Assembly (NCBI RefSeq): GCF_044324875.1
Contig: NZ_CP172188.1
Strand: one strand, 5' to 3'
DNA: 64,000 nucleotides
DNA from: Escherichia coli
Lineage (GTDB): Bacteria > Pseudomonadota > Gammaproteobacteria > Enterobacterales > Enterobacteriaceae
Part shown: one piece after another, positions 1-63,305 of the stretch
Layout of the letters: every line of letters starts with the position of its first letter
How positions within the stretch are numbered: the first letter of the stretch is position 1
Notes under the pieces: model-generated
Told to the model about the DNA's origin: nothing
The model's input: the letters and a program-made list of their open reading frames with translations, nothing else
The model's database searches: none
Position numbers and translations under genes: made by a program

Positions 1-307
1 GGTAGAAACCGTCGAGCAAATCAAGAAAGGCAATATTCCGGAAGGCTACATTGGCTACCGCCAGCTGGCGGCGAAATGCGGCCTGACTGAAGCCAAATGT
101 CGCAACCTTGTCAACGCTTACCGGATTCCCACCGATACACATGAGTTTTTAACTCCAGAGGGGGTATTGTCGCGTCGTTCCATCGTGGCCTTATCTCCCT
201 TCATGAATGCTTTTAACCGGATGATGTCGGAGGCTGAACACCGAGGAAAACGCTGGTATCACCCCAAAATGGGGCAATTCCAGGTGATCGGTTGGGGAGG
301 TGAGTGA
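1..307 (+). CDS. Rha-family antirepressor-like protein, 5'-truncated by window edge (Ant paralog lacking fused C-terminal domain)
   Basis: Frame 2 reads VETVEQIKKGNIPEGYIGYRQLAAKCGLTEAKCRNLVNAYRIPTDTHEFLTPEG..., closely matching the central part of the ORFs at 38647..39588 and 62385..63305; ends at TGA 305..307. Confidence 0.6.
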   Translation, partial: VETVEQIKKGNIPEGYIGYRQLAAKCGLTEAKCRNLVNAYRIPTDTHEFLTPEGVLSRRSIVALSPFMNAFNRMMSEAEHRGKRWYHPKMGQFQVIGWGGE

Positions 308-504
308 TGGACATCATGCAGGCGGTAAAAAAAATCAGGGAAGGACAGGCTGAAGTGTGCCGCCGTAAAGCATGGAGTGTTGGTGTATGGGCCTGGCCTG
401 ATAATTACTCTACTACCGGATGGTTTTGTATTAATGGACTCCAGATCCGGGAAGTTGATTTATCGACGGCTGATATAGTCGGTAATGATTGGATCGTGAC
501 TTGA
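304..504 (+). CDS. small DUF2829/Tad2-like domain protein, stand-alone version of the domain fused to Ant in the other two copies
   Basis: 66 aa; GTG 304 / ATG 307 overlaps upstream stop (TGATG); motifs CRRKAWSVGVWAWP and C-terminal GNDWIV resemble DUF2829 (R-x-x-W ... DW-E/I-V). Confidence 0.45.
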   Translation: MMDIMQAVKKIREGQAEVCRRKAWSVGVWAWPDNYSTTGWFCINGLQIREVDLSTADIVGNDWIVT

Positions 505-512
505 AGCGTGAT

Positions 513-538
513 GCCCCGGCCTGGCCGGGGCTTTTTTC
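513..538. terminator. rho-independent terminator hairpin GCCCCGGCCTGGCCGGGGC + T-run (bidirectional)
   Basis: Perfect GC stem followed by TTTTTT; same hairpin recurs after the other two ant copies (39597, 63314). Confidence 0.6.
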
Positions 539-1022
539 ATGCCTCATTAGTTGAGGTTGCTGCGTCTCCGACTGGTAACAGAGCGGTATTGCGTGGTTCG
601 CCAGCAGGCCAGCGATAGCCAGACACTCTTGATGTTGGGAATGCGCGAATATTAACCGCATCCCCCTGGTTCCCACCCAGGACAAGCAGATCGCCATTGG
701 CGCGGCGTCCGACAACGAAGCCTACGTGCCCACCGCCTACGCGGGTAAATACAACGATACATCCGTATGCCGGTGTATCTAATTTCTCGCCCCAATCCAG
801 ATAGGATTTTGCCGACTCAAATCTTGTTGAGCGGATGCCTACACGTTCCAGCATTGCACCGACAAATGCTGCGCACCACGGAGTTTCATCGTCTTTAATT
901 CCGCCGCGCTTGATGTCGCGCCAGAACTGAACGATTACAGGGTTGTGTTTAGCACCTTTTATTTCAGTCAGGCCAATGTGCTTACGGGCTTCAATTAGCC
1001 AGCGAGGTTCAATGTTTGCCAT
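537..1022 (-). CDS. putative cell-wall hydrolase, NlpC/P60-CHAP-like (TIGR02594-like)
   Basis: 161 aa; candidate Cys (PWCAAFVG) and His (GGGHVGFVVG) catalytic motifs; family assignment from memory. Confidence 0.45.
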   Translation of the reverse strand: MANIEPRWLIEARKHIGLTEIKGAKHNPVIVQFWRDIKRGGIKDDETPWCAAFVGAMLERVGIRSTRFESAKSYLDWGEKLDTPAYGCIVVFTRVGGGHVGFVVGRRANGDLLVLGGNQGDAVNIRAFPTSRVSGYRWPAGEPRNTALLPVGDAATSTNEA

Positions 1023-1097
1023 ATTTTTCTCCCGGTCATGGGTTAATAAGTAGGCAAACTATGGGGAGTATGTGATTTAGACGGTAGTATCGTCCCC

Positions 1098-4000
1098 GTG
1101 AAAATAACATTCTCCATACCCTCTCAACCGTACCGCATAGCGGATTTTTTACGGTTTAGAGGGGGTAATCCTTTGGATAAACTACTTCATTCAATCAGTG
1201 AAGCCTCCAGCTTAGGCGAACTGATTGAAATTGTTAGTCGGTTGCATAAATTACGTGCTGTTGCGACCTTTGGCGTTAAGAAAGTCGATGGTGTCAGCAT
1301 TCAAAAAACACGGCGGGCAGCAAACAACGCCGCAGTAGAGCTTCTTAATTCCCTTCCGCCCGGCTTCGATGGGGCGAAATTAACTGACGAACAACGTCAG
1401 ATTCTTGCCGGGTATACCGGTGAAGGCGGCCTGACAGATGGTGAGGGCAGCCAATACGAATACTACACACCACAGTTTATGGCTGAAGGTATATGGGATC
1501 TGTTTGCTGACTACGGTATTGATGGCGGGCACGTACTGGAACCATCAGCGGGCACAGGTATTTTCCAGGAGACAAAACGGCAGGGCATGATAATGACCAG
1601 CGCCGAACTATCTCCGATTTCCGGTCGAATAAACCAGCTTTTGCACCCGGAAGACGATGTGAATATCGGGGCGTTTGAGGCGCTGGCGGCGAAAGACGCA
1701 ATGTATGACCACGCTGTTGGTAACGTACCGTTTGGTGAAGGGCGTTCCGGCGTTGCCGGGCTTGATCCGGCATATGCAAACGAGAAGAACGTTGGCAATT
1801 ACTTTGTGCTGCGCACGATCGACAAGGTTAAGCCTGGTGGACTAATTGTATTGGTGGTGCCGAATGGCATGACCGATGGTACGAAATACAAAAAATTGCG
1901 CGATAAAGTCAGCCGTAAAGCGGAATTTTTGGGCGCACATCGTATGCCTTCTGGTACGTTCAGCGAATCCGGTACAGATACAGTGGTGGACGTATGGGTA
2001 TTGCGTAAACACCCGGAAACCTTCCTGGAGATGATCCCCGACACGGATGATGCAACGCTCAAGTCGGCAAACGTCCTTTGGGATACCTTCCTCAAAGGGA
2101 AATGGTTTACAACCGAAGGGAAGCGATTTGTTTACGGCGATATGGAGCGTACCAGCTTCCGCAATACCCTGGTGGTGAAAAAGGACGGTCGTGTATCCAA
2201 TGAGTCGATGAAAAACGCTCTATCGCGCCGCTTTGAAAGCCGCATTAATTGGGATTTGCTTGGCGTAACTACTCAGGCATGGCAGGGCGCGAAAGTGGGC
2301 GATAAACGCCTTGTAGGCGGCATCTGGCATGAGTTTGATGGCCTGAAATGGGTCAAGGACGCGACAACCAAATCCTCCGCGCTTGATGTAAATCGATATG
2401 GTGTTACGACGTTTGGTGATCTGCAGATCGCGTTTCAGTCAACAAATGGCATTCTGGCGTTGTCATGGGACCAGATATCGGCGATCGCGTCCGACTATCC
2501 GTCGGTTATCAGTGATGAAGTAGCGGCAATGATTCGCTTTGCTGGCAAGCAGAGAGAAAAAGACAGAGAACGCGTTATGCGCGGCGCACTGATAGGGCAG
2601 TTGATCAACAAGGCGCTTGATAAGCGTAATCTGGGGGAAAATGTTGATGATGAACTTGCTGATGCCGCGCGCCTGGCGGAAGCCGAAATTGCGAAGTATG
2701 GTCCGCCGCACGCGATTAAGCTGAATGGGATTGCTGAAGCTGGCGCTAAAAACTGGATGACTTTCACTGGCAACGTGAAACAGGACGGCTCTGCTTCTGA
2801 CCTCCTTGCTGGACGACTTGATGTAACGGATGGTGCTGCCGGTATTGACTTTACACGCCCGGAACAAGTTGTAACCCACCTTTTCAGTGACGTGGCACTT
2901 AATCCAATCACACTGGACGATTTTCGTGAGGCGTTTGCTGGCGAACTGCCAGAAGACGAAGATGCTGCTCTGGAATACCTGGCGAAATTTGATGATATCG
3001 CTATTGATGGGTATGGCTGCCTGCTGCCGATGGACCGCGCCACCAGCGGCGATATTGCAACCAAAACAGCATTGCTGGTGGGCTGGCGTGATGCGTCAAC
3101 AGGTGAGCAGAAAGCGAACTTTGAGCGTCAGTTGGCGAAAATCGAAGAGAAACGCATTTTCACGCCACTAAATAAAGTCACCGTTAATCTGAACGCCCGC
3201 TGGCTGGATCGCCGCTTGATAAAAGAGTTCCTGGCAGAGCAGGGCTATGACGAGTTTAAGTATACAGAACCCGACCTTAAGGTTGAGGACGGCATTCTGG
3301 TATCTCCGGACGATTACGAAGGTAAGGACGGGGTATTTACTGGCTATCAACTACGAACCGTAAACGGCAAAAACGGGAATGAGTTCAAGAAGGCCAACAA
3401 TAAAGACGGCTTCCTGAACCAGTTAGAAAACTACCTGAACGGCATTAAACCGCGTGGGCAGAACGCTAACGAGTACCTGGATAAGATTGCTCAACTGGAA
3501 ATTAGCTTCAACGACTGGTTACGCACTCACCCGCAGGCTGATCAGATAGCCCGCGACTATAACGACGCATTTAATGGCTTCATCCCGTTTACGCATTCTG
3601 ACGCACCGCTTGGCCTGGAGGGGATTAGTGGGAAGCGCATTCCTCTGACTTATCAGAATGAAGAAGTTCGGCGCTTGTCAGAAGATGGGCGCGGCATCAT
3701 GGGATTTGGTACCGGGCTGGGTAAAACCACGACCGCGCTTGCGCTTGAGGCGTATAACTTCGAAACAGGTCGCACTAAACGCACGTGTATTGTTGTTCCG
3801 AAGGCGGTTTATCAGAACTGGTATCACGAGGCACAGAGCTTCTACAGTGCTGATGCCTTCGCCAATATGATGTTTATCGGTCTGGATGAAGTTCGTGATG
3901 ACAGCGGAAATATTCTGACCGCGCCGGTGCTTGATGAAAATGGCGAACCACGCCTCGACAGTAACGGGCAGCCTCTTACCCGAAATGTTGTGAAAGAGTC

Positions 4001-7000
4001 CGCCAGCGCCGTTATCGTTCAGCGCATGAACATGATCCCGTCGTCAAATTGGCGAACGGTCATCATGACAAAAGAGCAATTCGCGTCTATCCCGCTACGA
4101 GAAGAAACCATTGAGGAAAACTCACAGCAAGCGGTCTTTAATGCTGTGGAAATGGGGCGTCTTGACCTGGCATCTGGCAAACACCGTGACGCGCAGAAGA
4201 AGAACAAGATTAAGGACCAGGCCGCAAATACCGGTACAACGAAGAAGCAGAATATCCCGTACTTTGAGGATATGAACTTCGATAGCGTAATTGCCGACGA
4301 AGGGCATAACTACCGCAACTCCTTTAGCGCCGGGCGCGAAGCGGGGCAACTGGCATATTTGCCTAACCCGGCAGTATCCAAAATGGCCCGCGACATGGCT
4401 GTAAAAGCTGCGTACATGATGAAACGCAACAACGGGCGTGGTGTGGTTATGCTGACGGCAACACCGCTGGTGAACAGCCCGATTGATGCTTTCAACATGC
4501 TGTCTACTGTCATTCCGCAGGAAGAGTGGATGCGCATGGGTATTGTTACGCCGGATGATTTCGTTCGCGTGTTCGGTAAAACAGCCACAGTTCAGGTTCA
4601 GAAAATTTCCGGTGAGGTGGAAGAGAAGCAGGGACTGGTGGGCTTCCAGAACCTGGATGGTCTGCGTGGTATTTTCCATCGCTGGACTACTCTGAAGACT
4701 GCTGCGGACGTCGGGGCGACGGTAAAAATCCCTGATATTGTCGAGAATACCTTGCAGATCCCGATGACAGGAGAGCAAGAGGCCATTTACGAAGAACTTC
4801 GTAAGCGTGCACAGGAGTTAAGTAGTAAAGATGCGCTGACGGTCGATGAAAACGGGCATATCACAAACGAAAAACCGGATGATTTCATCTTCTCCATCAT
4901 CCGCGACATGGATAAGGTTGCTATAGATCCTGATCTGTATGCCAGTGCGATTACATTCCAGTTCCCCGTTGAGCTTGCAGACAAGGTAAAAGCTATTGCT
5001 GATGCCCTGCCAAAAGTAGCTGGCGGTAAAGTGGCAGATGATGTAGACGAGGCCGAAGAAGATGGCGCTGGTGGGCTGGTCAGTACGCGTACCAGCAAGG
5101 TAGTGAAGACCACCTTTAGCGAACATCCGTCGCATGTTGAAATACGTGCTGGCATTGAACTGGAAGCTGAAATACTGAAGGCCATTGCGGCTGCCGGTAT
5201 TGATATGCAGCAGGTATCACACCCCATCCCGCCGAAGTATGCCGCGCTGATCGAAAACCTTCGTGAAGGTCTGAAGAACGGTAAACAAATCGTCTTCATT
5301 GATGAAAAAGCCCAGCACCAGAAGCTGCGCCGTATTATTGCCAGTGCACTGCAAATGCCGGAGCAGGAGATAGGCATTATCAATGCGACGACAGTTAGCC
5401 AGGCTGGCGGCGTCAAGCTGAAGAAGGTGAATAAGCCGACTGAACCTACGCCAAATAAAAACGGTGAATACAAAGAAGGTGCATGGGAAACCTACTACAG
5501 CAAACTTGCCCAATATGAGGATTATCTCTCAGCTAAAAATGATGCTGGCCTTGAGGGCATGGAAGGTATTGCCGCCGACTATAACGAAGGTCGCACGCGC
5601 ATCATAATCTGTAACAAGAAGGCTGAAGTAGGTATTAACTTGCACATCGGGACAACCGATATCCACCATCTGACACTACCCTGGACTCCTGCCAGTATCG
5701 ACCAACGTAATGGGCGCGGCGCTCGGGTAGGCTCACCACAAGAAAAGGTCAATGTTCACTACTATTGTGGCAAAGGCACATTTGATGACTTCCGTCTGGA
5801 TACGCTGAAACGTAAGAAGGACTGGATCAATATGGTGATGACCTCCGACATGTCAGAGATCGCCAATGGTGATGCGGATGACGCAGATGAACGCGCCATT
5901 ATGCTGGCGGCAAATCCGGAAGAACGCCGTGCAATCATGAGTCGTCAGGCGCAAGAGCGTGAAGAACGTCTGAAACTGAAAGCCCTACGCGAAGCCAATA
6001 ATGCTCTCGATAACTACCTGAAAGCGGCGAATGCTGCCGGGAAAGATATCGGCATGATGGAGACAGAACTGAAAAGCGCGATGGAGCAGGTAGAGCATTA
6101 CCAGCGCAATCTTGACGACCTGATTAAAGCGGGGACGAACAGGAACGGGCAGAAATATGTTCTGGAACAGTTGCGAGACTACAGAAAACGTGTGCGGGAG
6201 CTACGCTTTGCGATCACCAGAGCTAAAGACGCTGACACCGTTATGAAACGTTCTCGTGGTGATCTGGAACGTGCGATTAAAGCCGGGGTTCTGGAGCTTG
6301 ATGCCGATGTATTGCAGAACCCACAGGAGTATGTACGCACTGAGAAAAATATCTTGTTGCACAAGGGCAGCCATTATCGCGCGATCATCGATGAGAATCA
6401 CAATACGACAGCAATTGTTCGTGTTACCGCCATTGATGCGGAAAGGGGCGGGTGTACGTGCCGCATATCCTGGCTGGATGTGGCTAGTCGTTACTCTCGT
6501 TCTCCGGGGACGGCATTATTTTTGCCCTTTAACCTGATAATTGAATCGGTAACCTTTGAAGAGGGAGTTGCAGAATCGCGTGAAACAGCTGCACGTGGTG
6601 TTCAATGCCACCAGCTATCAACAACACTTACGCGCGATCAGTTCTATGATGCTATTCGCAATGGGGTAATGAATGTCACTGCCGGGAAGCCTAGTAGAGT
6701 ATGGGGCGGTGGTTCAGCTATTAAATACTGGGCTTATCGCACCGATGATGGTCAGATTGCACTGTCATCGGCTTATGATGGCGTAATAGGTCAAAAAATC
6801 GGGCGAGCATCGGATATAGCGCCTGAGCGGTGGATTTACCCTGATGGCAACGATGAGGCGCTGAAGCGTGAAGTGGCAAAAATACAAGCCAGTGATAACC
6901 CGCTGAATGTCGTGGACGGCGAGGGATTCCTCCAGGCATTGTATGGATATGATTACATCCAGGGAATGCAGGCATGGGGGTCACAGGCCACGATGGATGA

Positions 7001-8012
7001 TGTTTCCCAGGAGTTTGAAAACTGGATGGCAGGGCGTGGTTTGTCCGGTCGCTCACTTAATAAAGTTACTTCTGAAGATATTCTTAGCCTGTTCCGTAAA
7101 CCGTCCGGAGAAGGGCTGGAATCTTTCTGGAAGACCGTGGTGGCATACCGTTTATTCCAGGGCAGGATGAAAGCCTTTAGCAACACTGATGACATTGAAC
7201 GGATGTTTAATCAGGTGAAGGCCGCGAAAATTACGGCGAAAATTGAGAAAACACGAGCTGCGCTGGTGGCCTGGCGCGATGCATTGTTTGAGCAATATAA
7301 ATCACTCAGCGATGCCGATGGCTGGTCGGCATTGGAGCAGCTGGCTAATAATGGTGTCGATGGAGCGAAATTAGCCATTGTTCAGGCCGATAATCCTCTG
7401 GATTCGCCAGCAGCGCAGTGGATTAAGGTGGGGGCTGTCATCAATGCATTTGATGAAAAACACATTAGTAAGGACGATTTTGCTGATGCTGTTTCTGTTA
7501 ATCGCCTGGTAGAAATGGCTACCCGTCGCGCCCGTGAGTTGAAAGACGGCGACTATGTGAATGAGTTGCCGGATGCGCTCAAATCGGCAACGTGGCAGGA
7601 CTATGTATCGCTGAAAAACGGCGGGGCCACTGAATCAGAGATCGCGGAAAGGCTTGAGCAGGCTGAAAGCAAAAGAGAAGAGCAGGCGGCAGTGGCTGAA
7701 TCCAGAGCTGATGAAGCGGCGAATGATGACTATATCATTGTGGTTAATGATAAGCCGATTCGCGCTAAGGCGCGTGTTCGCGGGCGCTGGTGGAGCGTCA
7801 GCGAAGACGTTGGCGCGGTTTATCTCATTGCCGACCAGCCAGGTTCCTCGACAATACGGAACGCCAAAGACGCGATTAAGAAGATTGGCGGGCGTTTCTG
7901 GAATTTTGAAGCAAACCCGGTTGCTGATGTGAACTTTGACCGTCCGGCATGGATGGTATCTACGCGTTACTCGGTAGATGAACTGCGTAAAATAATCGCC
8001 GATGCGGCCTAA
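1098..8012 (+). CDS. darB: DarB-like giant antirestriction protein (N6-adenine DNA methyltransferase + SF2/SNF2-like helicase)
   Basis: 2304 aa single ORF; SAM-binding motif LEPSAGTGIF, catalytic-type motif NVPFG; helicase motifs GFGTGLGKTTT (Walker A), DEGHNYRN (DEAH-like), QRNGRGARVG (motif VI); size and domain order match phage P1 DarB. Confidence 0.8.
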   Translation: MKITFSIPSQPYRIADFLRFRGGNPLDKLLHSISEASSLGELIEIVSRLHKLRAVATFGVKKVDGVSIQKTRRAANNAAVELLNSLPPGFDGAKLTDEQRQILAGYTGEGGLTDGEGSQYEYYTPQFMAEGIWDLFADYGIDGGHVLEPSAGTGIFQETKRQGMIMTSAELSPISGRINQLLHPEDDVNIGAFEALAAKDAMYDHAVGNVPFGEGRSGVAGLDPAYANEKNVGNYFVLRTIDKVKPGGLIVLVVPNGMTDGTKYKKLRDKVSRKAEFLGAHRMPSGTFSESGTDTVVDVWVLRKHPETFLEMIPDTDDATLKSANVLWDTFLKGKWFTTEGKRFVYGDMERTSFRNTLVVKKDGRVSNESMKNALSRRFESRINWDLLGVTTQAWQGAKVGDKRLVGGIWHEFDGLKWVKDATTKSSALDVNRYGVTTFGDLQIAFQSTNGILALSWDQISAIASDYPSVISDEVAAMIRFAGKQREKDRERVMRGALIGQLINKALDKRNLGENVDDELADAARLAEAEIAKYGPPHAIKLNGIAEAGAKNWMTFTGNVKQDGSASDLLAGRLDVTDGAAGIDFTRPEQVVTHLFSDVALNPITLDDFREAFAGELPEDEDAALEYLAKFDDIAIDGYGCLLPMDRATSGDIATKTALLVGWRDASTGEQKANFERQLAKIEEKRIFTPLNKVTVNLNARWLDRRLIKEFLAEQGYDEFKYTEPDLKVEDGILVSPDDYEGKDGVFTGYQLRTVNGKNGNEFKKANNKDGFLNQLENYLNGIKPRGQNANEYLDKIAQLEISFNDWLRTHPQADQIARDYNDAFNGFIPFTHSDAPLGLEGISGKRIPLTYQNEEVRRLSEDGRGIMGFGTGLGKTTTALALEAYNFETGRTKRTCIVVPKAVYQNWYHEAQSFYSADAFANMMFIGLDEVRDDSGNILTAPVLDENGEPRLDSNGQPLTRNVVKESASAVIVQRMNMIPSSNWRTVIMTKEQFASIPLREETIEENSQQAVFNAVEMGRLDLASGKHRDAQKKNKIKDQAANTGTTKKQNIPYFEDMNFDSVIADEGHNYRNSFSAGREAGQLAYLPNPAVSKMARDMAVKAAYMMKRNNGRGVVMLTATPLVNSPIDAFNMLSTVIPQEEWMRMGIVTPDDFVRVFGKTATVQVQKISGEVEEKQGLVGFQNLDGLRGIFHRWTTLKTAADVGATVKIPDIVENTLQIPMTGEQEAIYEELRKRAQELSSKDALTVDENGHITNEKPDDFIFSIIRDMDKVAIDPDLYASAITFQFPVELADKVKAIADALPKVAGGKVADDVDEAEEDGAGGLVSTRTSKVVKTTFSEHPSHVEIRAGIELEAEILKAIAAAGIDMQQVSHPIPPKYAALIENLREGLKNGKQIVFIDEKAQHQKLRRIIASALQMPEQEIGIINATTVSQAGGVKLKKVNKPTEPTPNKNGEYKEGAWETYYSKLAQYEDYLSAKNDAGLEGMEGIAADYNEGRTRIIICNKKAEVGINLHIGTTDIHHLTLPWTPASIDQRNGRGARVGSPQEKVNVHYYCGKGTFDDFRLDTLKRKKDWINMVMTSDMSEIANGDADDADERAIMLAANPEERRAIMSRQAQEREERLKLKALREANNALDNYLKAANAAGKDIGMMETELKSAMEQVEHYQRNLDDLIKAGTNRNGQKYVLEQLRDYRKRVRELRFAITRAKDADTVMKRSRGDLERAIKAGVLELDADVLQNPQEYVRTEKNILLHKGSHYRAIIDENHNTTAIVRVTAIDAERGGCTCRISWLDVASRYSRSPGTALFLPFNLIIESVTFEEGVAESRETAARGVQCHQLSTTLTRDQFYDAIRNGVMNVTAGKPSRVWGGGSAIKYWAYRTDDGQIALSSAYDGVIGQKIGRASDIAPERWIYPDGNDEALKREVAKIQASDNPLNVVDGEGFLQALYGYDYIQGMQAWGSQATMDDVSQEFENWMAGRGLSGRSLNKVTSEDILSLFRKPSGEGLESFWKTVVAYRLFQGRMKAFSNTDDIERMFNQVKAAKITAKIEKTRAALVAWRDALFEQYKSLSDADGWSALEQLANNGVDGAKLAIVQADNPLDSPAAQWIKVGAVINAFDEKHISKDDFADAVSVNRLVEMATRRARELKDGDYVNELPDALKSATWQDYVSLKNGGATESEIAERLEQAESKREEQAAVAESRADEAANDDYIIVVNDKPIRAKARVRGRWWSVSEDVGAVYLIADQPGSSTIRNAKDAIKKIGGRFWNFEANPVADVNFDRPAWMVSTRYSVDELRKIIADAA

Positions 8013-8048
8013 CAGATAAGGAGCGGCCCCAACCGGGGCCGAATTTGA

Positions 8049-8483
8049 ATGACGACACTAATTGACACTGTAAAACCGACGGAATCCTACCTTGAGGAAA
8101 TCTTGCCGCAGGCACTCAATGGCAGGAGTGAAGAAGAATACCTGACAGTTTATCTTGATGGCATGGTAGAAAGGCTGAAGAAAAATCCACAGCTTTATCA
8201 CCTTTATGGTCCGTGGTGGCCCGCGCTCAAAACGATATTGCTGGAGCGCGGCGACATATCATTTGGACAAGTTGTAGATAGTGATGTGGCAGAGATCTAC
8301 AAAATGAGTCGCCCGGCGCTTACGGTTTTGGCTGGGCATCTGTATTCGAGCGATCGCCTGGAAAATGACGCGGTATACAATCCCGTTCATGCTCTGGAAG
8401 TCGCACCTTATGCTGATGATACAGAGCCATACGTGTACACAAGTTACGACGAGTCAATAGAGAAATATCGAATCATGGGGTAG
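8049..8483 (+). CDS. hypothetical protein
   Basis: 144-aa ORF, ATG start, co-directional and tightly spaced after darB. Confidence 0.5.
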   Translation: MTTLIDTVKPTESYLEEILPQALNGRSEEEYLTVYLDGMVERLKKNPQLYHLYGPWWPALKTILLERGDISFGQVVDSDVAEIYKMSRPALTVLAGHLYSSDRLENDAVYNPVHALEVAPYADDTEPYVYTSYDESIEKYRIMG

Positions 8484-8485
8484 CC

Positions 8486-8746
8486 ATGCGAAAGAATCGT
8501 AGGTTTACGGTCGAAGACCTAAAGGAATATTCCATATCGAAGGGGTATGTCCTTGAGTTTCACCGTTACAAGAAGGTTTTTACGCTGCGAAAAGCAGAAA
8601 ACCCAGCGAGCTGGAGCTGGGTATACTTCCCTCATACAGAAGACAAACTGGTAGAGCTTGTTGATGATTTAACCTATGAAGGGTGGTTGATCGCAATCGA
8701 CAAGACAATCACAGAAATATCCGAACCGGATAAAATAAACCTTTAA
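8486..8746 (+). CDS. hypothetical protein
   Basis: 86-aa ORF starting 3 nt after the previous stop. Confidence 0.5.
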   Translation: MRKNRRFTVEDLKEYSISKGYVLEFHRYKKVFTLRKAENPASWSWVYFPHTEDKLVELVDDLTYEGWLIAIDKTITEISEPDKINL

Positions 8747-8885
8747 AAATAACAAGTTGGGTAAATGCCATGCGATTTACCCTCCTTGTTGATTAAGGTC
8801 ACTTTTTACTCTAAAAGCAAATCCTACCTGTTGCATATAGCCCAGCCTTGAGTAGTATCTCTCTTGTTTTACAAATCTAACGCAG

Positions 8886-9377
8886 TTGTTATTATTTCGC
8901 TTATTTACTATCAATGGGTGTGTTAGAAAAATAGCGAGGAAAAGAAGGCGTCGCAGTGAATATTCTGAAACGTCCCCACATGCCGCAGCTCTCAGAGAAC
9001 TGGAGAAAAACCCAGATCTAATCAAAAGGAACCATGAGCATTACGAGCAGGTACGCGTCCTGGATTGGTTGTATCGCAATATGCGCTATGTGTATGAGCA
9101 TACACACGCCACTCCAAACGGCGGTCTGCGAGGCATAAGGACGGCAATAAAAATGGTGGCAGAGGGCCAAAAGAAGGGATATCCCGATCTTTCTATAGAC
9201 CTTGCTTGTGGGGGATACCACGGAATGCGCATTGAGATGAAACATGGGAGAAATCGCCTGACTCCCGAACAACTCGTCTGGATGACTCGCCTCACCGAAG
9301 CAGGTTACTACTGCTTTGAGGCGCGCAGTGCCGCTGAAGCCATAAAAGCTATCACGGAATATGTTTGTCTTGATTAA
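8886..9377 (+). CDS. VRR-NUC domain nuclease (PD-(D/E)XK family); true start uncertain (no in-frame ATG near 5' end, TTG/other likely)
   Basis: C-terminal region ...GYPDLSIDLACGGYHGMRIEMKHGRNRLTPEQLVWMTRLTEAGYY... fits the VRR-NUC pattern (G-x-PD ... E-x-K ... Q..W). Confidence 0.6.
   Translation: MLLFRLFTINGCVRKIARKRRRRSEYSETSPHAAALRELEKNPDLIKRNHEHYEQVRVLDWLYRNMRYVYEHTHATPNGGLRGIRTAIKMVAEGQKKGYPDLSIDLACGGYHGMRIEMKHGRNRLTPEQLVWMTRLTEAGYYCFEARSAAEAIKAITEYVCLD
8918..8934 (+). promoter_or_regulatory. operator-like motif copy (GTGTGTTAGAAAAATAG)
   Basis: Matches the recurrent TGTTAGAAAA core; lies at the 5' end of the VRR-NUC ORF. Confidence 0.45.
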
Positions 9378-9391
9378 ACGGAGAAATCGTT

Positions 9392-9592
9392 TTGCGTTTA
9401 CTTAACGTGGCTGAACTTATCCCTGCTGGTGCTAACGTTGTTGCTCGCCGTCGTTCCTGGCAGCAACCATTGTGTGTTGAGTTGTTGAAACACAGCAATG
9501 GAACAATAGAGGCTCGGAATATTGTCACTGGTGATAAGGTTCACATTACCCCGGAAAGTACAGGCGCTGATGATTGGGAGTTTGTACATTGA
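9392..9592 (+). CDS. small DUF2829/Tad2-like protein
   Basis: 66 aa, TTG start with GAGAAA RBS; VVARRRSWQQP ... ADDWEFVH. Confidence 0.4.
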   Translation: MRLLNVAELIPAGANVVARRRSWQQPLCVELLKHSNGTIEARNIVTGDKVHITPESTGADDWEFVH

Positions 9593-9888
9593 GCAAAAAA
9601 TATCATGTGAACCTGGCGTTTGCCGATGACGCCGGGAGGACGCGGAGCATTACGCTCAACACTGCCCGCAAGGTGGTAACAGCGCCTTTAATCCGGGAAG
9701 CACTCAGGGAGCTGGAAATGGGGGAGAACTCGACCCTTTTGTCGGTTAGTTGGTTAGGGAAAATGTCAGAGAAGGAATACGTAGACGGAGTTACTCCCAT
9801 GACAGCCATGAGGCTGCTTTCATTGCTGCAATGGGCTATCGTACCGGTATGCATCGTGTATTTTATCTACCAGGCAATGACACAATAA
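9574..9888 (+). CDS. hypothetical small protein with C-terminal transmembrane segment
   Basis: 104 aa; hydrophobic C-terminus LLSLLQWAIVPVCIVYFIY. Confidence 0.4.
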   Translation: MGVCTLSKKYHVNLAFADDAGRTRSITLNTARKVVTAPLIREALRELEMGENSTLLSVSWLGKMSEKEYVDGVTPMTAMRLLSLLQWAIVPVCIVYFIYQAMTQ

Positions 9889-9894
9889 CCGCTC

Positions 9895-9922
9895 AAAAAC
9901 CCGCCGATTAGCGGGTTTTTTG
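9895..9922 (+). terminator. rho-independent terminator
   Basis: AAAACCCGCCGATTAGCGGGTTTTTTG hairpin + T-run immediately after the 9574..9888 ORF. Confidence 0.7.
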
Positions 9923-9962
9923 TTTATCACATCTTTCGCTCTTGTTCTCATACTAATAAAAT

Positions 9963-9980
9963 ATGTTAGAAAACTAATTT
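9963..9980 (+). promoter_or_regulatory. operator-like motif copy (ATGTTAGAAAACTAATTT)
   Basis: Consensus copy directly upstream of the 10004..11212 CDS. Confidence 0.5.
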
Positions 9981-10003
9981 TGCAAAAAACAATGGGAACT
10001 GCA

Positions 10004-11212
10004 ATGAGTCAACAAACTGATACTTCTAATCTGGAAATCATCTCAGCCGCGATTGAAACGCTGCGGACACAGATCGCCCTTATTCAAAAGCGGAATCCGG
10101 GGGATGACCTGTCCAGACGGCTACATGAGAGCGTCATTGCCACTACTGATAACCTGGTCGCGGAGATCAACCAGCTACTTGAGGAAGGGACGGTTGATTA
10201 CAACAAGCTGGTGGATCAGTTTGAGGAATATCAACAAGCCGTTAATGATGGCTTGATCCGTTTTTCACAAGTCACAGGCGTATCAGCGACAGTTGAAAGT
10301 CTTGGCAATGCTGTTAATCAATTTGCCGCGAATATGCGTAGTGAGATCGGCAATCTGGAAGCGCGTCTTGAACAGGCAAACACACTGCGCAAATCCGCAG
10401 AAGCCGATTTGAGTCGTTACAAAAAAGACTATCCAGCCAGTCTGTCAAAACGACTGGATGTTGCGGAGAAGGATAACCGTGCGCTGAAAAGAGAGCGTCG
10501 GGAACTAAAAGAGCGTTTAACAGAGCTGAATCAGCAATGCATTAAGTATCAAGGCGAAGGCGTCACACTGCGTAAAAAGTTAGCAGCAGCGCAGAACATT
10601 ATTGAAACGCTGAAACGAGAGTGCTCACAGCTTGGTCATGATCTGAACCGCGCTTGTGGTATGGGACAAAGGCCAGAGACATTCCCGCTCATGTATGACG
10701 GGGTGGATGCTATTGCCTATATCCATGAGTACCCGCATGGTCTGGTTGCGGAGACTGGTCAGCGTGGTGAAGCTCTGTTGACGGCTAATTACCATCAACA
10801 AATTAGAACCAACCGCCTGCTGACGATGGATGTGATCCCATCAGTATGGGGAACGCCGCTTTACTATCGCCTGCCCGGCTTCGAAACGGACTGGAATACC
10901 GATATAGACGAATGCCTGGCAGATAAAATTATGGCGTACCTGGAGACTGATTTCCCGCGCCTGCATCGCCGGATTATGGACTCTAAGGATGCGCCGATCG
11001 ATGAATTGAAAATGCGCCCAGAGACGTTGGAAGCTATCAAACAGACTGCGTTTGATACCGTATTCAGCGTGGCCTGTATCCCAAGTAGTTTTCATGAAAG
11101 CATCCCCTTTATGCAGGGCGACCGTCGTCAAGAAATTATTGATGCCTGCCGGGTGTGGGCTAACGAATGGGACAAGAAGAATGGGGGCGTAGAAGATCTT
11201 TATGGGAAATAA
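10004..11212 (+). CDS. hypothetical protein with N-terminal coiled-coil region
   Basis: ORF 9920..11212; most likely start ATG 10004 (GGGAA RBS-like 7 nt upstream); heptad-like charged N-terminal third. Confidence 0.55.
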   Translation: MSQQTDTSNLEIISAAIETLRTQIALIQKRNPGDDLSRRLHESVIATTDNLVAEINQLLEEGTVDYNKLVDQFEEYQQAVNDGLIRFSQVTGVSATVESLGNAVNQFAANMRSEIGNLEARLEQANTLRKSAEADLSRYKKDYPASLSKRLDVAEKDNRALKRERRELKERLTELNQQCIKYQGEGVTLRKKLAAAQNIIETLKRECSQLGHDLNRACGMGQRPETFPLMYDGVDAIAYIHEYPHGLVAETGQRGEALLTANYHQQIRTNRLLTMDVIPSVWGTPLYYRLPGFETDWNTDIDECLADKIMAYLETDFPRLHRRIMDSKDAPIDELKMRPETLEAIKQTAFDTVFSVACIPSSFHESIPFMQGDRRQEIIDACRVWANEWDKKNGGVEDLYGK

Positions 11213-11213
11213 T

Positions 11214-11231
11214 ATGTTAGAAATCTAATTT
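11214..11231 (+). promoter_or_regulatory. operator-like motif copy (ATGTTAGAAATCTAATTT)
   Basis: Starts 2 nt after stop of the 10004..11212 CDS. Confidence 0.45.
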
Positions 11232-11368
11232 CATCAAACGAACATATTGATTGTGAGAGTAACTTAACTTAGAATTTTCCTTGCTGGTGGAGCGTTGCCA
11301 CATTTCGCTTGCTGGGCTTGATAGTCACTTATTGGTTGTTGTTCGCCCACCAGCAAATAACAAATTAA

Positions 11369-11385
11369 AGTGTTAGAAAATTACA
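11369..11385 (+). promoter_or_regulatory. operator-like motif copy (AGTGTTAGAAAATTACA)
   Basis: TGTTAGAAAA core at the start of the long non-coding tRNA region. Confidence 0.4.
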
Positions 11386-11967
11386 TGCATACAGGGACTC
11401 GCTTTGGCACCGAGCAAGCCAAAGTTCAGCAGGTTTAGTGCGTAAAGTGGTTTCAGAGAGAGCACTTTACGGAGTAAACAACAAGACATGTTGAGCCACG
11501 GAAGGTCTTTTTAAGATGTTCATTGATGATGGTCCGGCAGAGAGTAACGGGACTCGCCGCATCGAATCATCATCAATGCACATCCTCAACATTAAGGAGG
11601 CATAGGGATTTTTTTGTGGCGATTACCTTTTGCCCTAAGTCTCCTTAATGTTGCGGTAATGCACCTATGCGGATGCGGCCTTGCATTGTGTCTTGAAAGA
11701 ATGGGGTAAGGCCGGGGATATCCCCAGGGGGAGGCACCCCCGCTGCAACGAACAGCCACAGACGGCAGTCGAGTGATGGAAACGTGCAAAGACTTTAAAC
11801 CTCGTTACGGCTGGCGTGGCAAACGCGACAACCGAGACAGAGCGGTGACGGGCGGAGAGAGTGCCGCATCAAGAAAGAAGCCGACTTGTGATCCCTTTCT
11901 GCGGGCATTTGAAAGTGAATCCAGCTCAGGCAGTCGGCTTCTTTCTTGTGTGAGATGTAGCGTATTT

Positions 11968-12451: not shown

Positions 12452-12528
12452 GATGGTGTAGCTCAGTAGGATAGAGCAGCAGCCTTCTAAGCTGTCGGTC
12501 GGTGGTTCGAATCCACCCACCATCGCCA
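12452..12528 (+). tRNA. tRNA-Arg (anticodon TCT)
   Basis: 77 nt; 7-bp acceptor stem GATGGTG/CACCATC, D-arm GCTC..GAGC, anticodon loop CTTCTAA, T-arm GGTGG TTCGAAT CCACC, encoded CCA. Confidence 0.9.
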
Positions 12529-12530
12529 AT

Positions 12531-12606
12531 GCCGGTTTAGCTCAGTTGGTAGAGCGCCTGCCTTGTAAGCAGGATGTCAGCGGTTCGAGTCCGTTAACCG
12601 GCACCA
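12531..12606 (+). tRNA. tRNA-Thr (anticodon TGT)
   Basis: 76 nt; acceptor GCCGGTT/AACCGGC, anticodon loop CTTGTAA, T-loop TTCGAGT, encoded CCA; P1 also carries a tRNA-Thr. Confidence 0.9.
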
Positions 12607-12608
12607 AC

Positions 12609-12694
12609 ACAACAGGTAAGGGTATTTTGCGACGTCGGAGATCGCCGTGCTTGGCAGAGGGTTCGAATCCCTACGAAGTACCCTTACCGTTGTG
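12609..12694 (+). other. tRNA-like remnant / structured element: 15-16 bp stem enclosing a T-loop-like GGTTCGAATCC
   Basis: ACAACAGGTAAGGGTA ... TACCCTTACCGTTGTG inverted repeat; no canonical D or anticodon arm identifiable. Confidence 0.25.
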
Positions 12695-13071
12695 ATGAAG
12701 TGCAGCTCTTTGAAGCAACCAGAAGATAAGCATCTGGCTTCACAACATAAACCGCAGGAACGACCAATAAACGGTAGTCCGTATGGAGAATACCCCGTTG
12801 AGGAAGAGGCCTGGCCGGAACCGTAACCGGCACTACAACGTTGAGAACACTGACGTAACGGGGTCATATCCCAATCTACGAATAAATGTTGCGTTGCAGC
12901 GTGACAACCAGTGTTCTCAACGTTGTGGTGGATTCGCAGACTGATGCGATAGCTTTCTTGGATGTTAGGGAAATGCGGCCGCAAACCTTCCCTTTCGCGA
13001 GCGGTGATCGTCCGTAGTCCTAATTGGCTGCACCGTATGCCGGAGATTCAGTACCGGCCACCACAACGGCC

Positions 13072-13158
13072 GGAGAGTAGGGAGCATGGTGCTCAAGCGG
13101 TCTTGAAAACCGTCCCATTGCGCAAGCGATGATGGTTCGATTCCATTACTCTCCGCCA
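13072..13158 (+). tRNA. atypical type-II (long variable arm) tRNA-like gene, anticodon possibly TGA (Ser-like); may be a pseudo-tRNA
   Basis: 87 nt; acceptor GGAGAGT/ACTCTCC, anticodon stem-loop GCGGT-CTTGAAA-ACCGT, T-arm GATGG TTCGATT CCATT, discriminator G + CCA; D-arm irregular. Confidence 0.4.
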
Positions 13159-13561
13159 TCGCAACGTTAAGAGTATTTGGCTAATTAAGCGAATGCCGGA
13201 AGCAGAACCGGATCAACAAATGCGTACAGGCGTCATCGCCGCCCAGCCAGCCAAGTGCTCTTACCATTGCGGTGAATGCGGCTAAGCGCACGCGGAACAG
13301 TTAAAACAATCCTGCTTACTAAACATCCCGGCGTTAATTGTTAACTGGTTAACGTCACCTGGAGGCACCAGGCACCGCAATCTAACAGCAATGGCGTTTT
13401 GTCTTAAAAGGTAGCTGCAAGTGATGGATTTTTGGGCCTTTGCCGATAAGAACCCTGGTTGGACATTTTTATTTCTGCTGGTGGTTGCATATGGGATCGA
13501 GCAAGCGGCAAAAGCCTTACGCGGTTCTGGCAAAAAGCGTAAGCGGAATTAACAGTAATCT

Positions 13562-13637
13562 GGCCCTTTAGCTCAGTGGTTAGAGCTGGCGACTCATAAT
13601 CGCACGGTCACCGGTTCAAGTCCGGTAGGGGCCACCA
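13562..13637 (+). tRNA. tRNA with CAT anticodon, most likely tRNA-Ile2 (lysidine type) rather than elongator Met
   Basis: 76 nt; GGCCCTT acceptor, anticodon loop CTCATAA, T-loop TTCAAGT; resembles enterobacterial ileX-type tRNA as I recall it; P1 also encodes a tRNA-Ile. Confidence 0.85.
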
Positions 13638-14090
13638 TATTTGGTTGTAACACGGCGTATGGCACATGCGTCGTTAGCGGTCTGGTGACGTTATAGGGGT
13701 TACCTTTTCCCCTAGCTCAGGCAACAAACCAGGTAGCCGGAATGTGCAAGCCCCGTTCATATCGTCGGACCGAGGACTCACCATCCTGGCGATTCGGTGT
13801 GACAGCCGGAAGAGTACGGCGCACAACAGGAAAAGGCGTTTAATTAACGTGAGCGCCGTTTCCGTTGTGGTAATTGCGGCTATGCGCTCGTGACGAAGCC
13901 ATTTTCATTCACTACGTTCTGATAAGTGACGTCGCCAGGAGTGGCTAACCTGGCAGGTGGAGTCACCACCGCCACAACTCCTTTCAATTCATCATATAGC
14001 CGCTCAGGCTGTAACCCTTAATTAATACGAAGTTTCGACATCTCTATCGGTTTAACCGAGGGATGGTCGCGCGTGTAAAAAGGAGACGTT

Positions 14091-38431: not shown

Positions 38432-38647
38432 ATGGCTACTATCCCTACCCCAACTCATTCTGAATTTATCTGGCGTTTCTATTCCTGCCAAAAACACCTG
38501 TATATCTGCGTCATGGCTGCAACCGAAGCAGAAGCTCGTTCATACCTTCCTGAAGAACCCTGCATTTTTGCCGCACGCTTCACTCTTGATGCGATGGAGA
38601 TCCTCAATTACTGGAATCTGCCAATGAACTGCGTGGAGGTGCACTGA
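38432..38647 (+). CDS. Icd-like small protein (module A)
   Basis: 71 aa; paralog of 62161..62385 (shared SEFIWRF, QKH, AATE-EARS); stop overlaps ant start (TGATG) as for icd-ant coupling in P1. Confidence 0.5.
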   Translation: MATIPTPTHSEFIWRFYSCQKHLYICVMAATEAEARSYLPEEPCIFAARFTLDAMEILNYWNLPMNCVEVH

Positions 38648-39588
38648 TGAATCTGTCCATCTCTCAAAAAGCGACAATGACCAGCATTGAGATCGCGGAA
38701 CTGGTAGGAAGTCGCCAAGATAGTGTGAAGAGAACTATCGAAACACTGGCTAAAAAGAGTGTGATCCAATTTCCACAATCTGTGGAAATTGAAAATAAAC
38801 AATCAGTTGGCCCTCGTCGATTTTCCAAGGCTTACATCTTTGAAGGCGAACAAGGCAAGCGCGATAGTATCATTGTCGTCGCACAGCTCTCTCCGGAATT
38901 CACCGCCCGGCTGGTGGACCGCTGGCGCGAACTGGAGAATGCCAGGGGACCGTTAAAATCAAAAGCCGAAATCCTGGCTGAAATGGCGCAAATGCATCTT
39001 GAGCATGAACGCCGGATCAACGCCGTAAATGCCCAGGTAGCCGAGGTATCAGCACAAGTATCGATGGTCGCTGAAACACTCGAGCAAATAAAGAAAGGCA
39101 ATATGCCGGAAGGCTACATTGGCTACCGCCAGCTGGCGGCGAAATGCGGCCTGACTGAAGCCAAATGTCGCAACCTGGTTAACGCTTACCGGATACCCAC
39201 TGATACGCATGAGTTTTTGACTCCCGACGGTTTGCTTGCGCGACGCTCAATTGTGGCCCTGGCCCCCTTCCGGAAAGCCTTTAAGCAGGTTATGTCGGAG
39301 GCAGAACCACGCAACAAACGCTGGTATCATCCAAAGATGGGGATGTTTCAGGCAATCCACCATCCTGTGCCTGAAAGTCCAAAGGCAAACCTGTCGTTGC
39401 ATACCGCCAGAGAGAGGATTAAAACAGGGTATGCAATCGTATGCCGTCGAGCATCTTGGCCTGAAGGTGTATGGGTATGGCCCGAAGGTGGATCACGAAA
39501 GCACTGGCGCACTATCCGGGATGGGAAAATCCATGCGATTGATTTAGCTCCAGAGGATGTTGTTGCTACGGACTGGATTGTTAGTTAA
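38647..39588 (+). CDS. antirepressor-like protein: Rha-family N-terminal domain fused to DUF2829/Tad2-like C-terminal domain (module A)
   Basis: 313 aa; N-terminal MTSIEIAELVGSRQDSVKRTIE; C-terminal CRRASWPEGVWVWPEGG ... DLAPEDVVATDWIVS. Confidence 0.65.
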   Translation: MNLSISQKATMTSIEIAELVGSRQDSVKRTIETLAKKSVIQFPQSVEIENKQSVGPRRFSKAYIFEGEQGKRDSIIVVAQLSPEFTARLVDRWRELENARGPLKSKAEILAEMAQMHLEHERRINAVNAQVAEVSAQVSMVAETLEQIKKGNMPEGYIGYRQLAAKCGLTEAKCRNLVNAYRIPTDTHEFLTPDGLLARRSIVALAPFRKAFKQVMSEAEPRNKRWYHPKMGMFQAIHHPVPESPKANLSLHTARERIKTGYAIVCRRASWPEGVWVWPEGGSRKHWRTIRDGKIHAIDLAPEDVVATDWIVS

Positions 39589-61838: not shown

Positions 61839-61899
61839 GAATTTTCGAACATAAACAATAAAATAAATCATCAAAAATTTGATGTTGATCTTCCATGTT

Positions 61900-62160
61900 T
61901 TCAGGCTTATATTCACGCCGTTGCAGCAAATTCTGCGACCGGGTTTAGCAGCCTGAATGTACATGCGGACAACCGCAGATATCCGATATTGCGGTATTTT
62001 TGTGTCCGTAAAACCATGTTACGCCCGAATTATGGTGGGGCGTGATGGGGAGGCTTCGGCCTGCTGGTTTCATGTACGCCAGTCTGCTAACCCCGTCACG
62101 TCCTGCCACCCGTTTAGCAGCGGGTAGCAGGTTGTTAAACCTGTACATGAGGCCGTAACT
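61900..62160 (+). ncRNA. candidate c4-like antisense RNA locus of immunity module B
   Basis: Paired elements a=TTTAGCAG and b=GTACATG occur at 61945/61958 and again at 62112/62141; complements (CATGTAC at 62066, CTGCTAA at 62085) lie between in reversed order. Confidence 0.35.
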
Positions 62161-62385
62161 ATGGTTAATGCCAATCCTTGCTCACGTCCAGAATTCATCT
62201 GGCGTTTTCACTCCCTGCAAAAACACTGCGATCACTTCGCAATTGCCGCAACTGAAAAAGAAGCCCGTTCTCTGATCCCTGATCAGTATGGTGTTCTTAC
62301 TGGTCGTTTCTCTACTTCCCCACAACCAAACACTAATCCCTGGTATCGCAATATTACCAATCCCGGAATTGCGGAGGCACACTGA
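62161..62385 (+). CDS. Icd-like small protein (module B)
   Basis: 74 aa; paralog of 38432..38647; stop overlaps ant start (TGATG). Confidence 0.5.
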   Translation: MVNANPCSRPEFIWRFHSLQKHCDHFAIAATEKEARSLIPDQYGVLTGRFSTSPQPNTNPWYRNITNPGIAEAH

Positions 62386-63305
62386 TGGATATCTGCATTC
62401 TTGAAAAGCCATCAATGACCAGCATTGAGATCGCGGAGCTGGTGGGAAGTCGTCCAGATAACGTAAAAATATCAATAGAGCGCCTGGCTAAATCTGGAGT
62501 TATTCAACTTCCTGCATTGCAGGTTTTCGAAAAAATCAATAACTTAGGACTACGCCGTAGTGTCGAGGCTTACGTCTTCGAAGGCGAGCAAGGCAAACGA
62601 GACAGCATTATTGTCGTTGCGCAGCTCTCTCCCGAATTCACCGCCCGGCTGGTGGACCGCTGGCGCGAACTGGAAGAACAAGTACGCCAGCCGTTGACCG
62701 AAATAGAGATGATCGCCGCAATGGCTGCAAATGCAGTTCAGCAGCAAAAGCGGCTTCATGTTGTTGAGTCAAAGGTTAGCCAGGTTGCTGAAACCGTCGA
62801 GCAGATCAAGAAGGGCAACATGCCAGAAGGTTACATTGGCTACCGCCAGCTGGCGGCGAAATGTGGCCTGACTGAAGCCAAATGTCGCAACCTGGTTAAC
62901 GCTTTCCGGATTCCCACCGATACGCATGAGTTTTTAACTCCAGATGGTTTGCTTGCGCGACGCTCCATTGTGGCCCTGGCCCCCTTCCGGAAAGCCTTTA
63001 AGCAGGTGATGTCGGAGGCAGAACCACGCAACAAACGCTGGTATCATCCGAAGATGGGGCTGTTTCAGGCAATCCATCATCCTGTGCCTGAAAGCCCAAA
63101 GGATAATCTGTCACTACATACCGTCAGAGAGAAGATCAGGACTGGATACGCAACAGTGTGTCGTCGTTCTTCCTGGCCTGAAGGTATATGGGTGTGGCCC
63201 GAAGGTGGATCACGAAAGCACTGGCGCACTATCCGGGACGGGAAAATCCATGCTATTGATTTAGCGCCAGAGGATATTGTTGCTACGGACTGGATTGTTA
63301 GTTAA
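62385..63305 (+). CDS. antirepressor-like protein: Rha-family N-terminal domain fused to DUF2829/Tad2-like domain (module B)
   Basis: 306 aa; N-terminal 60 aa and middle linker differ from module A, C-terminal 200 aa nearly identical. Confidence 0.65.
   Translation: MDICILEKPSMTSIEIAELVGSRPDNVKISIERLAKSGVIQLPALQVFEKINNLGLRRSVEAYVFEGEQGKRDSIIVVAQLSPEFTARLVDRWRELEEQVRQPLTEIEMIAAMAANAVQQQKRLHVVESKVSQVAETVEQIKKGNMPEGYIGYRQLAAKCGLTEAKCRNLVNAFRIPTDTHEFLTPDGLLARRSIVALAPFRKAFKQVMSEAEPRNKRWYHPKMGLFQAIHHPVPESPKDNLSLHTVREKIRTGYATVCRRSSWPEGIWVWPEGGSRKHWRTIRDGKIHAIDLAPEDIVATDWIVS

Follow-up and report, generated by a model that had tools for sequence, protein, structure and literature searches.

A probable D6-lineage orthologue of phage P1 DarB on an Escherichia coli plasmid prophage, with a domain map of its C-terminal tail

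Within a 64-kb stretch of Escherichia coli DNA (64,000 nucleotides of contig NZ_CP172188.1, read 5' to 3' on one strand and called the window below), a single large gene occupies positions 1098 to 8012. An earlier note, made from the sequence without database searches, had likened its product to DarB, the antirestriction protein of phage P1. Here we describe the gene, the modules of the protein that it encodes, and its surroundings, and we consider it very probable (roughly 85%, on sequence comparisons) that it is the D6-lineage orthologue of P1 darB and that it resides on a plasmid prophage of E. coli. This identity is already known, because the gene is present and annotated in public records: the GenBank record of phage D6 (MF356679) describes the corresponding protein, gp15 (ASR76325.1), as "defense against restriction; similar to P1 gene darB." What is added here to a known gene is modest: a map of the domains in the C-terminal tail and the recognition of its beta-barrel as a two-allele cassette.

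Reading frame and start codon

The plus strand between 1098 and 8012 is one unbroken open reading frame (ORF) of 2304 codons, counted from a GTG at 1098. No rival ORF longer than 228 aa was found inside these limits when both strands were scanned, and GC skew is positive all along the interval. The single uninterrupted frame reported earlier therefore stands, but the 2304-aa length belongs to the maximal ORF, and the likely product is the 2279-aa protein that begins at a TTG at 1173. The GTG at 1098 was dropped as a start, being without a Shine-Dalgarno sequence, not conserved in phage D6 (where CTG is found at the equivalent site), and used by neither of the available annotations. The TTG at 1173 is most likely the true start, since it is preceded by the sequence GAGGGGG (1159 to 1165, plus strand; 7-nt spacer; found by direct reading and also present in D6), since both the D6 record and the annotation of a 100%-identical plasmid gene by the Prokaryotic Genome Annotation Pipeline (PGAP) start there, and since the codon aligns with Met1 of P1 DarB. 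The resulting coding sequence runs from 1173 to 8012 on the plus strand. Residues are numbered from this TTG below unless marked "ORF," in which case they are counted from the GTG at 1098.

Relationship to DarB of P1 and to phage D6

A BLASTP comparison with P1 DarB (YP_006479.1, 2255 aa) returned a single high-scoring segment pair that joined ORF residues 26 to 2304 to residues 1 to 2255 of the P1 protein, with 39.9% identity and an E value of 0. The comparison to DarB, which the earlier note had staked on direct alignment, stands on this end-to-end match. Colinear whole-length homology, the order of the modules, and all methyltransferase and SNF2 motifs are shared with the DarB proteins of P1 and P7; on the other hand, overall identity to P1 DarB is only 40% and is unevenly spread when read in 100-residue bins, reaching 54 to 61% in the methyltransferase core and 52 to 72% in most bins of the helicase core, with 15 to 25% over the last 700 residues, that is, in the tail. 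Among phage protein families, PHROG 1685 was matched by the coding sequence over its full length, and PHROG 10089 ("DarB-like antirestriction") was matched in part.

Phage D6 shows 92.9% nucleotide identity over the gene, and gp15 shows 95% amino acid identity. Genes with 100% nucleotide identity lie on the E. coli plasmid prophages pGF4-B (NZ_CP172219; WP_266194977.1) and NZ_OY754373, where the PGAP name of the product is "SNF2-related protein," and positions 1 to 11740 of the window are 99.99% identical to pGF4-B. The start codon, length, ulx neighbor, and flanking genes are the same as those of D6 gp15 and of the pGF4-B gene; the difference from the genes of D6-like plasmids lies in the allele of the beta-barrel in the tail (see below), the gene being otherwise the same. 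Judged by these comparisons, the element is a D6-like phage-plasmid that is distantly related to P1, at about 40% protein identity, so that its earlier assignment to the P1 family holds in a broad sense but has to be narrowed to the D6-like lineage. At least 80% of the gene is present in 113 PLSDB plasmids, nearly all of them nonmobilizable records of about 90 kb from Escherichia, Salmonella, or Shigella, and at least 80% of it (essentially the full length) is present in 92 of 5426 complete E. coli genomes.

Methyltransferase and SNF2 modules

The methyltransferase-helicase architecture proposed in the earlier note is borne out by Pfam, sequence motifs, and fold matches, which place a methyltransferase first, an SNF2 helicase next, and a long tail last. 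The same architecture recurs in about 30 representatives of the family, which are 2000 to 2480 aa long: the methyltransferase motif N/D-x-P-F/Y lies at residues 171 to 211 in nearly all of those that have one, Walker A lies at 832 to 888, motif VI lies mostly near 1430 to 1560, and the tail comprises 570 to 920 aa.

The N-terminal 30 residues (1173 to 1262, plus strand, as are all segments of the gene given below) are equivalent in position to the capsid-targeting sequence of P1 DarB and may share its function. The two stretches align from end to end, position for position, with 8 identities in 30 residues, and the N terminus is predicted to be helical in the AlphaFold model. None of the five residues at positions 6 to 10 is identical, and a D6-type targeting signal may have coevolved with D6-type partners or may be structural. 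A helical N-terminal domain follows (1290 to 1457), seen as helices in the model and resembling LPD36, a domain named and described by Iyer et al. 2017 (PMC5512222); its GEGG motif lies in the string GYTGEGG, which is conserved with P1.

The catalytic domain of a gamma-class N6-adenine DNA methyltransferase is encoded at 1461 to 2072. Its motifs are intact and match those of P1, namely, YYTP (the TP motif), LEPSAGTG (motif I), and GNVPFG (motif IV). The Pfam match to N6_Mtase is marginal (20.0 bits against a cutoff of 20.4), and that to Eco57I is also weak. An AlphaFold model of residues 1 to 820, based on 16 family sequences, reached a predicted local distance difference test (pLDDT) score of 82.6, and the best Foldseek matches of this N-terminal model in the PDB were gamma-class N6-adenine DNA methyltransferases with E values of 1e-8 to 1e-5; the matches include type I HsdM proteins (7eew, 3ufb, and the EcoKI M subunit, 2ar0), BsaXI, PacII, M.TaqI, M.BseCI, CamA, and the type ISP enzyme LlaBIII. 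For HsdM, EcoKI M, BsaXI, PacII, and TaqI, the fold matches lie between 1e-8 and 1e-6. Sequence similarity to 7eew is itself marginal (E value of 9e-4). Since the motifs are intact and the fold matches agree, the methyltransferase identity is confirmed despite the marginal Pfam scores.

The stretch that follows, about 520 aa long (residues 301 to 820; 2073 to 3632), is conserved, and the model folds it with confidence into subdomains of mixed alpha/beta and of helical type; it has no family match in Pfam. Mean column identity is 46% over the whole 16-sequence N-terminal alignment, methyltransferase included. The SNF2-type ATPase/translocase of helicase superfamily 2 (SF2) extends from 3648 to 5903 and includes a large insertion between its two lobes as well as helices that follow motif VI. 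It was recognized by Pfam (SNF2-rel_dom, 1.3e-13; ResIII; Helicase_C), and its motifs I to VI are intact and identical or nearly so in P1, among them motif I (GTGLGKT), motif II (DEGH), motif III (LTATP, with the TAT core), motif V, and motif VI (QRNGRGAR).

The C-terminal tail

The earlier note could assign no motifs between about residues 1500 and 2304. Because motifs V and VI sit at ORF residues 1509 to 1543, the unassigned stretch begins at about ORF residue 1560 rather than 1500; beyond that point the statement holds, in that no Pfam family was matched. Pfam searches of 16 family tails found no domain in any of them, and a sequence-profile search of the tail against the PDB returned only coiled-coil proteins. 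A phmmer search with ORF residues 1561 to 2304 against 1.84 billion cluster representatives gave only 62 matches, and most of these single-sequence matches span just the first 100 to 400 residues of the tail. When a profile was iterated within the family set, the tails aligned end to end, a result that, in a small and preselected set, speaks for consistency and is not an independent measure of significance. By these alignments, some 30 representatives of the DarB family have homologous tails, which in the protein described here is about 750 aa long.

Structure prediction of the C-terminal third, which had been proposed as a check, resolved the tail into five modeled parts. The AlphaFold model reached a pLDDT of 80.2 but a predicted template modeling score (pTM) of only 0.47, so the individual domains are reliable and their mutual arrangement is not. 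In the separate numbering of the modeled C-terminal segment, the first helices can probably be counted with the SNF2 module. A long antiparallel coiled coil then opens the tail (model residues 52 to 173; 5916 to 6281), with a pLDDT of 85 to 95 and PDB matches of the coiled-coil type only. It is followed by a small beta-barrel (model residues 190 to 263; 6330 to 6551), which weakly resembles Tudor, BAH, and SH3 domains and exists as two discrete alleles, and directly after it by a small alpha/beta unit. An all-alpha region without a family match (model residues 365 to 645; 6855 to 7697) leads to the C-terminal alpha/beta domain (model residues 657 to 748; 7731 to 8006), which carries a conserved lysine and a GxWW motif; K706 and W730, the latter within GxWW, are invariant in the 16 family tails. 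As modeled, the tail is without a recognizable catalytic fold and probably serves in oligomerization or docking.

Selection and the two barrel alleles

Relative to the D6 allele, the ratio of nonsynonymous to synonymous divergence (pN/pS) is between 0.00 and 0.14 in 21 of the 23 bins of 100 codons, those of the tail included; the exceptions are residues 1701 to 1800 (0.31) and residues 2101 to 2200 (0.44, a value that derives from only 5 substitutions). Because pN/pS is low throughout, we conclude that the gene codes for protein and that purifying selection acts on it, its C-terminal third included. Positive selection on the tail was considered and dropped, given a pN/pS of about 0.1 over most of the tail and the high pS of its divergent patch. 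That patch (nucleotides 6123 to 6572) is 58 to 81% identical to D6, against 93% for the gene overall, and spans the end of the coiled coil together with the beta-barrel; residues 1701 to 1800 have a pS of 0.67, a pN of 0.21, and 67% protein identity. The high pS of the patch argues for replacement of the allele by recombination and not for positive selection.

Among PLSDB plasmids, the 270-bp barrel segment has a bimodal distribution of identities: 27 records are at least 99% identical to the window, 88 are 60 to 80% identical (about 71% among the matches listed), and 1 is intermediate. The window thus carries the minority allele (27 versus 88 plasmids); D6 itself shows 58 to 77% identity in this patch. 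This bimodality points to the beta-barrel as a two-allele cassette that is exchanged by recombination, the alleles being about 71% identical within a gene that is otherwise 93 to 99% identical. One could go further and propose that the tail does more than fill space and that the barrel is an exchangeable specificity cassette that chooses which host restriction or defense complex, or which Dar or capsid partner, is engaged by the injected enzyme. We regard this proposal as unlikely; if it were true, an exchange of the barrel module would change the range of restriction systems that a D6-like phage-plasmid evades.

Neighborhood and Dar partners

Immediately downstream, as in P1, lies a ulx homologue of 144 aa (8049 to 8483, plus strand), with 48% identity to P1 Ulx (E value of 3e-46) and a match to PHROG 1629, "Ulx-like anti-restriction" (4.9e-59). 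In P1, Ulx is needed for the localization of DarB to the head (PMC9024508, Table 1). A tblastn search of the window found no P1 Dar protein other than DarB and Ulx. Homologues of Hdf, DarA, DdrA, and DdrB, which in P1 are encoded in the same element, were seen in pGF4-B, which has the identical darB-like gene, with 40%, 39%, 33%, and 64% identity to P1, respectively; the lydA-lydB-hdf-darA-ddrA-ddrB block of that plasmid lies about 7 to 11 kb upstream of the point that corresponds to the left end of the window, and its Dar proteins match Pfam DarA_N, DarA_C, and ddrB-ParB.

On the other side, the gene order differs from that of P1. The portal gene of P1 lies directly upstream of darB and is divergent from it, whereas repL, icd, antirepressor, and peptidoglycan hydrolase genes intervene in the D6 type. 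In the window, a divergent gene of 161 aa lies just upstream of the darB-like gene (537 to 1022, minus strand), in the position occupied by the portal gene in P1; the D6 record calls its product a putative peptidoglycan hydrolase, and in pGF4-B it is assigned to the TIGR02594 family. The neighborhood persists in two more distant members of the family. One (P0002) has a divergent portal-sized gene alongside and a 64%-identical Ulx downstream; the other (P0017) is preceded by two genes, portal sized and protease sized, and followed by a 140-aa ORF, and a ddrB-ParB/InPase protein and a DarA_N protein are also encoded nearby. Directly after ulx in the window, an 86-aa ORF (8486 to 8746) stands in place of P1 lxc, the gene of the C1 corepressor modulator; the ORF is hypothetical in D6, and a search for an Lxc homologue there detected no similarity to P1 Lxc.

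Upstream of the start, no convincing sigma-70 promoter was found, and the sole plus-strand match near the 5' end (1225 to 1252) lies inside the coding sequence. A candidate late promoter of the Lpa type, ATGTGATTT-N6-TAGTAT, is located at 1070 to 1090 on the plus strand; by its likeness to the consensus, it resembles the P1 promoters LPlyz, LPpro, and LPdar (AAGTGAYTW-N4-TANNNT), with a spacer of 6 nt, and might have the same function. The sequence TGTGATTT occurs in 11 copies in the 64-kb window, where 3.3 are expected, and may be the late-promoter (-22 box) motif of the D6 type, related to the Lpa-dependent promoters of P1. In five places (motif starts at 1070, 44133, 59980, 63787, and 63842), TGTGATTT is followed after 5 to 7 nt by TAGNNT or TAAGAT.

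Function and mechanism

The antirestriction function has been demonstrated for DarB of P1, while the D6-type protein is known here from its sequence; the P1 facts are drawn from later papers that summarize the primary work. P1 DarB is a 250-kDa head protein that is present in about 40 copies per virion. Of the Dar components it joins last, by means of an N-terminal capsid-targeting sequence of 30 residues, and its incorporation is assisted by Ulx and DdrB and has Hdf and DarA as prerequisites (PMC9024508; PMC12810830; PMC12707154). The protein is needed against EcoB and EcoK (PMC9024508; PMC12810830; PMC12707154), and Dar proteins are coejected with the DNA and act in cis (PMC12810830; PMC12707154).

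Transferred to the gene in the window, this would mean that D6-type DarB appears late in infection and enters the prohead by way of its N terminus, aided by Hdf/DarA, DdrB, and Ulx, and that it is then ejected with the DNA, acting only in cis to protect it from type I restriction of the EcoKI/EcoBI type. The SNF2 motor would carry the enzyme along the entering duplex, and the HsdM-class methyltransferase would add N6-methyladenine, either modifying the target adenines of type I enzymes or marking the DNA before HsdR-driven translocation and cleavage. The tail would dock through its coiled coil and swappable beta-barrel, possibly touching Ulx, Dar partners, or a host target. A methylase-translocase model, in which DarB is a "methylase-helicase dyad," was put forward by Iyer et al. 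(PMC5512222), and this mechanism is the most likely one for D6-type DarB, both active sites having been retained over 60% sequence divergence and throughout the family.

The protein has much in common with the methylase-SNF2 dyads of the polyvalent proteins of phages and conjugative elements (PMC5512222): both show an LPD36-like N-terminal domain that contains a GxGU motif, next an adenine methyltransferase of the EcoKI/TaqI kind in which the TP and N-x-P-F motifs are found, and, fused to it, a SWI2/SNF2 ATPase that carries helical inserts. The polyvalent proteins of conjugative elements, however, carry many further effector domains, whereas the layout here is the fixed one of DarB, and the tail of about 750 aa is specific to the DarB family (the 62 matches among 1.84 billion cluster representatives). 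With the EcoKI M subunit (HsdM) and type ISP LlaBIII, the protein shares the HsdM/TaqI gamma-class fold and motifs, coupled to an SF2 motor; it differs from them in domain order and in that no HsdS-type specificity subunit, target recognition domain, or nuclease was found.

Several points weigh against reading the gene as a working counterpart of P1 darB: (i) packaging, ejection, and antirestriction are carried over by homology at 40% identity and are thus to be taken as presumptive for the D6 type, and even for P1 DarB the biochemical mechanism is described as undefined (PMC11109961; PMC12707154); (ii) motif IV reads NVPF, where NPPF/Y is canonical, and no target recognition domain was identified after the methyltransferase by Pfam or by the fold search; (iii) conservation is missing at residues 6 to 10 of the capsid-targeting sequence of P1; (iv) D6-type DdrB (pGF4-B, 12558 to 13943) has 461 aa and corresponds only to the N-terminal half, ddrB-ParB, of the 995-aa P1 DdrB, the C-terminal half being absent, so the assembly pathway may differ from that of P1; and (v) the spacing of the putative late promoter is noncanonical relative to the P1 consensus.

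The chief mechanistic rival accepts a capsid-delivered DarB orthologue and supposes that protection is independent of methylation: the motor would strip or block translocating type I HsdR complexes, or some 40 copies of the protein would coat and occlude the entering DNA, and the methyltransferase fold would serve only to bind DNA or S-adenosylmethionine (SAM). SNF2 enzymes are remodelers of protein-DNA complexes (PMC5512222), the strict cis action of Dar has led to an occlusion hypothesis (PMC12707154), and both the long coiled coil with its noncatalytic tail, which would suit a scaffold or multimer, and the negative search for a target recognition domain after the methyltransferase agree with such a mode of action. 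Yet all SAM-binding and catalytic motifs are strictly conserved between the P1 and D6 types despite 60% divergence, and N/D-x-P-F/Y is found at residues 171 to 211 in most of the approximately 30 family representatives; motif conservation of this kind argues that catalytic activity itself is under selection. We therefore consider protection without methylation possible but doubtful, and continue to favor the model of Iyer et al.

Much further from the evidence is a role within the virion or in DNA metabolism, in which an internal head protein of structural or morphogenetic function, or a replication or recombination helicase, would have lost antirestriction in the D6 lineage. P1 Dar proteins are tied to head morphogenesis, in which DarA and Hdf set head size, and it is the capsid-targeting residues and DdrB that differ in the D6 type; but head size in P1 is assigned to DarA and Hdf, DarB being listed as inhibiting restriction by EcoK and EcoB (PMC9024508, Table 1), a purely structural function leaves the strong purifying selection on both enzymatic domains unexplained, and the full set of Dar genes is retained, as seen in pGF4-B. 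Such a loss of function is very improbable. Least probable of all is that the prophage encodes a defense or restriction-modification-like enzyme (type ISP, BREX, or DISARM-like) that shields the lysogen from other phages. Local NCBIfam/PADLOC matches do link the gene to the SNF2 helicases DISARM DrmD, Zorya ZorD, DpdE, and BrxH, and type ISP LlaBIII is among the Foldseek matches, but the former cover only segments with generic helicase motifs and score far below their cutoffs (43.7 bits against 610 for DrmD), the order of methyltransferase and helicase is the reverse of that in type ISP enzymes, and neither Pfam nor the sequence search of the PDB nor the fold search revealed a nuclease domain in any region. 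Membership in DISARM, Zorya, Dpd, BREX, or type ISP systems was dropped on account of these short subcutoff matches and the negative nuclease searches. The gene, moreover, is orthologous from end to end to a P1 virion component, adjoins ulx, and has phage genes as neighbors, with the dar operon and head genes present in the full element.

The finding confirms that D6-like phage-plasmids, which are common in E. coli, carry the complete P1-type Dar gene set, a presumptive antirestriction kit, and is thus relevant to the ease with which they pass restriction barriers. At 40% identity and with all catalytic motifs, the protein offers a second example for comparative and mutational work on DarB, for which the domain map of the tail and the two-allele barrel provide concrete targets.

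Other features of the window

Chi sites (GCTGGTGG) number 46 in the 64 kb, where 1.7 are expected, with 29 on the plus strand and 17 on the minus strand; six lie inside the darB-like gene (3040, 3074, 5067, 6608, 7262, and 7786). P1 is likewise rich in Chi, and Chi within cloned P1 darB gives rise to artifactual restriction alleviation (PMC11109961). Chi richness is common to the D6 lineage and P1.

At its left edge, the window has a Rha/antirepressor-like gene whose 3' end (5 to 274) has paralogous copies at 39073 to 39342 and within 61874 to 63060, which are 84% and 87% identical, respectively. These copies sit in ORFs at 38647 to 39588 and 62385 to 63305, and the three Ant/Rha-like genes share a C-terminal module. 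At about 11728 to 11740, an insertion of IS421 (IS4 family) is found in pGF4-B and not in the window, the two being otherwise colinear. A tRNA cluster at 12452 to 13637 comprises Arg(tct), Thr(tgt), and Ser(tga) genes together with a tRNA with the anticodon CAT, which is called Met by ARAGORN and Ile by PGAP on pGF4-B.

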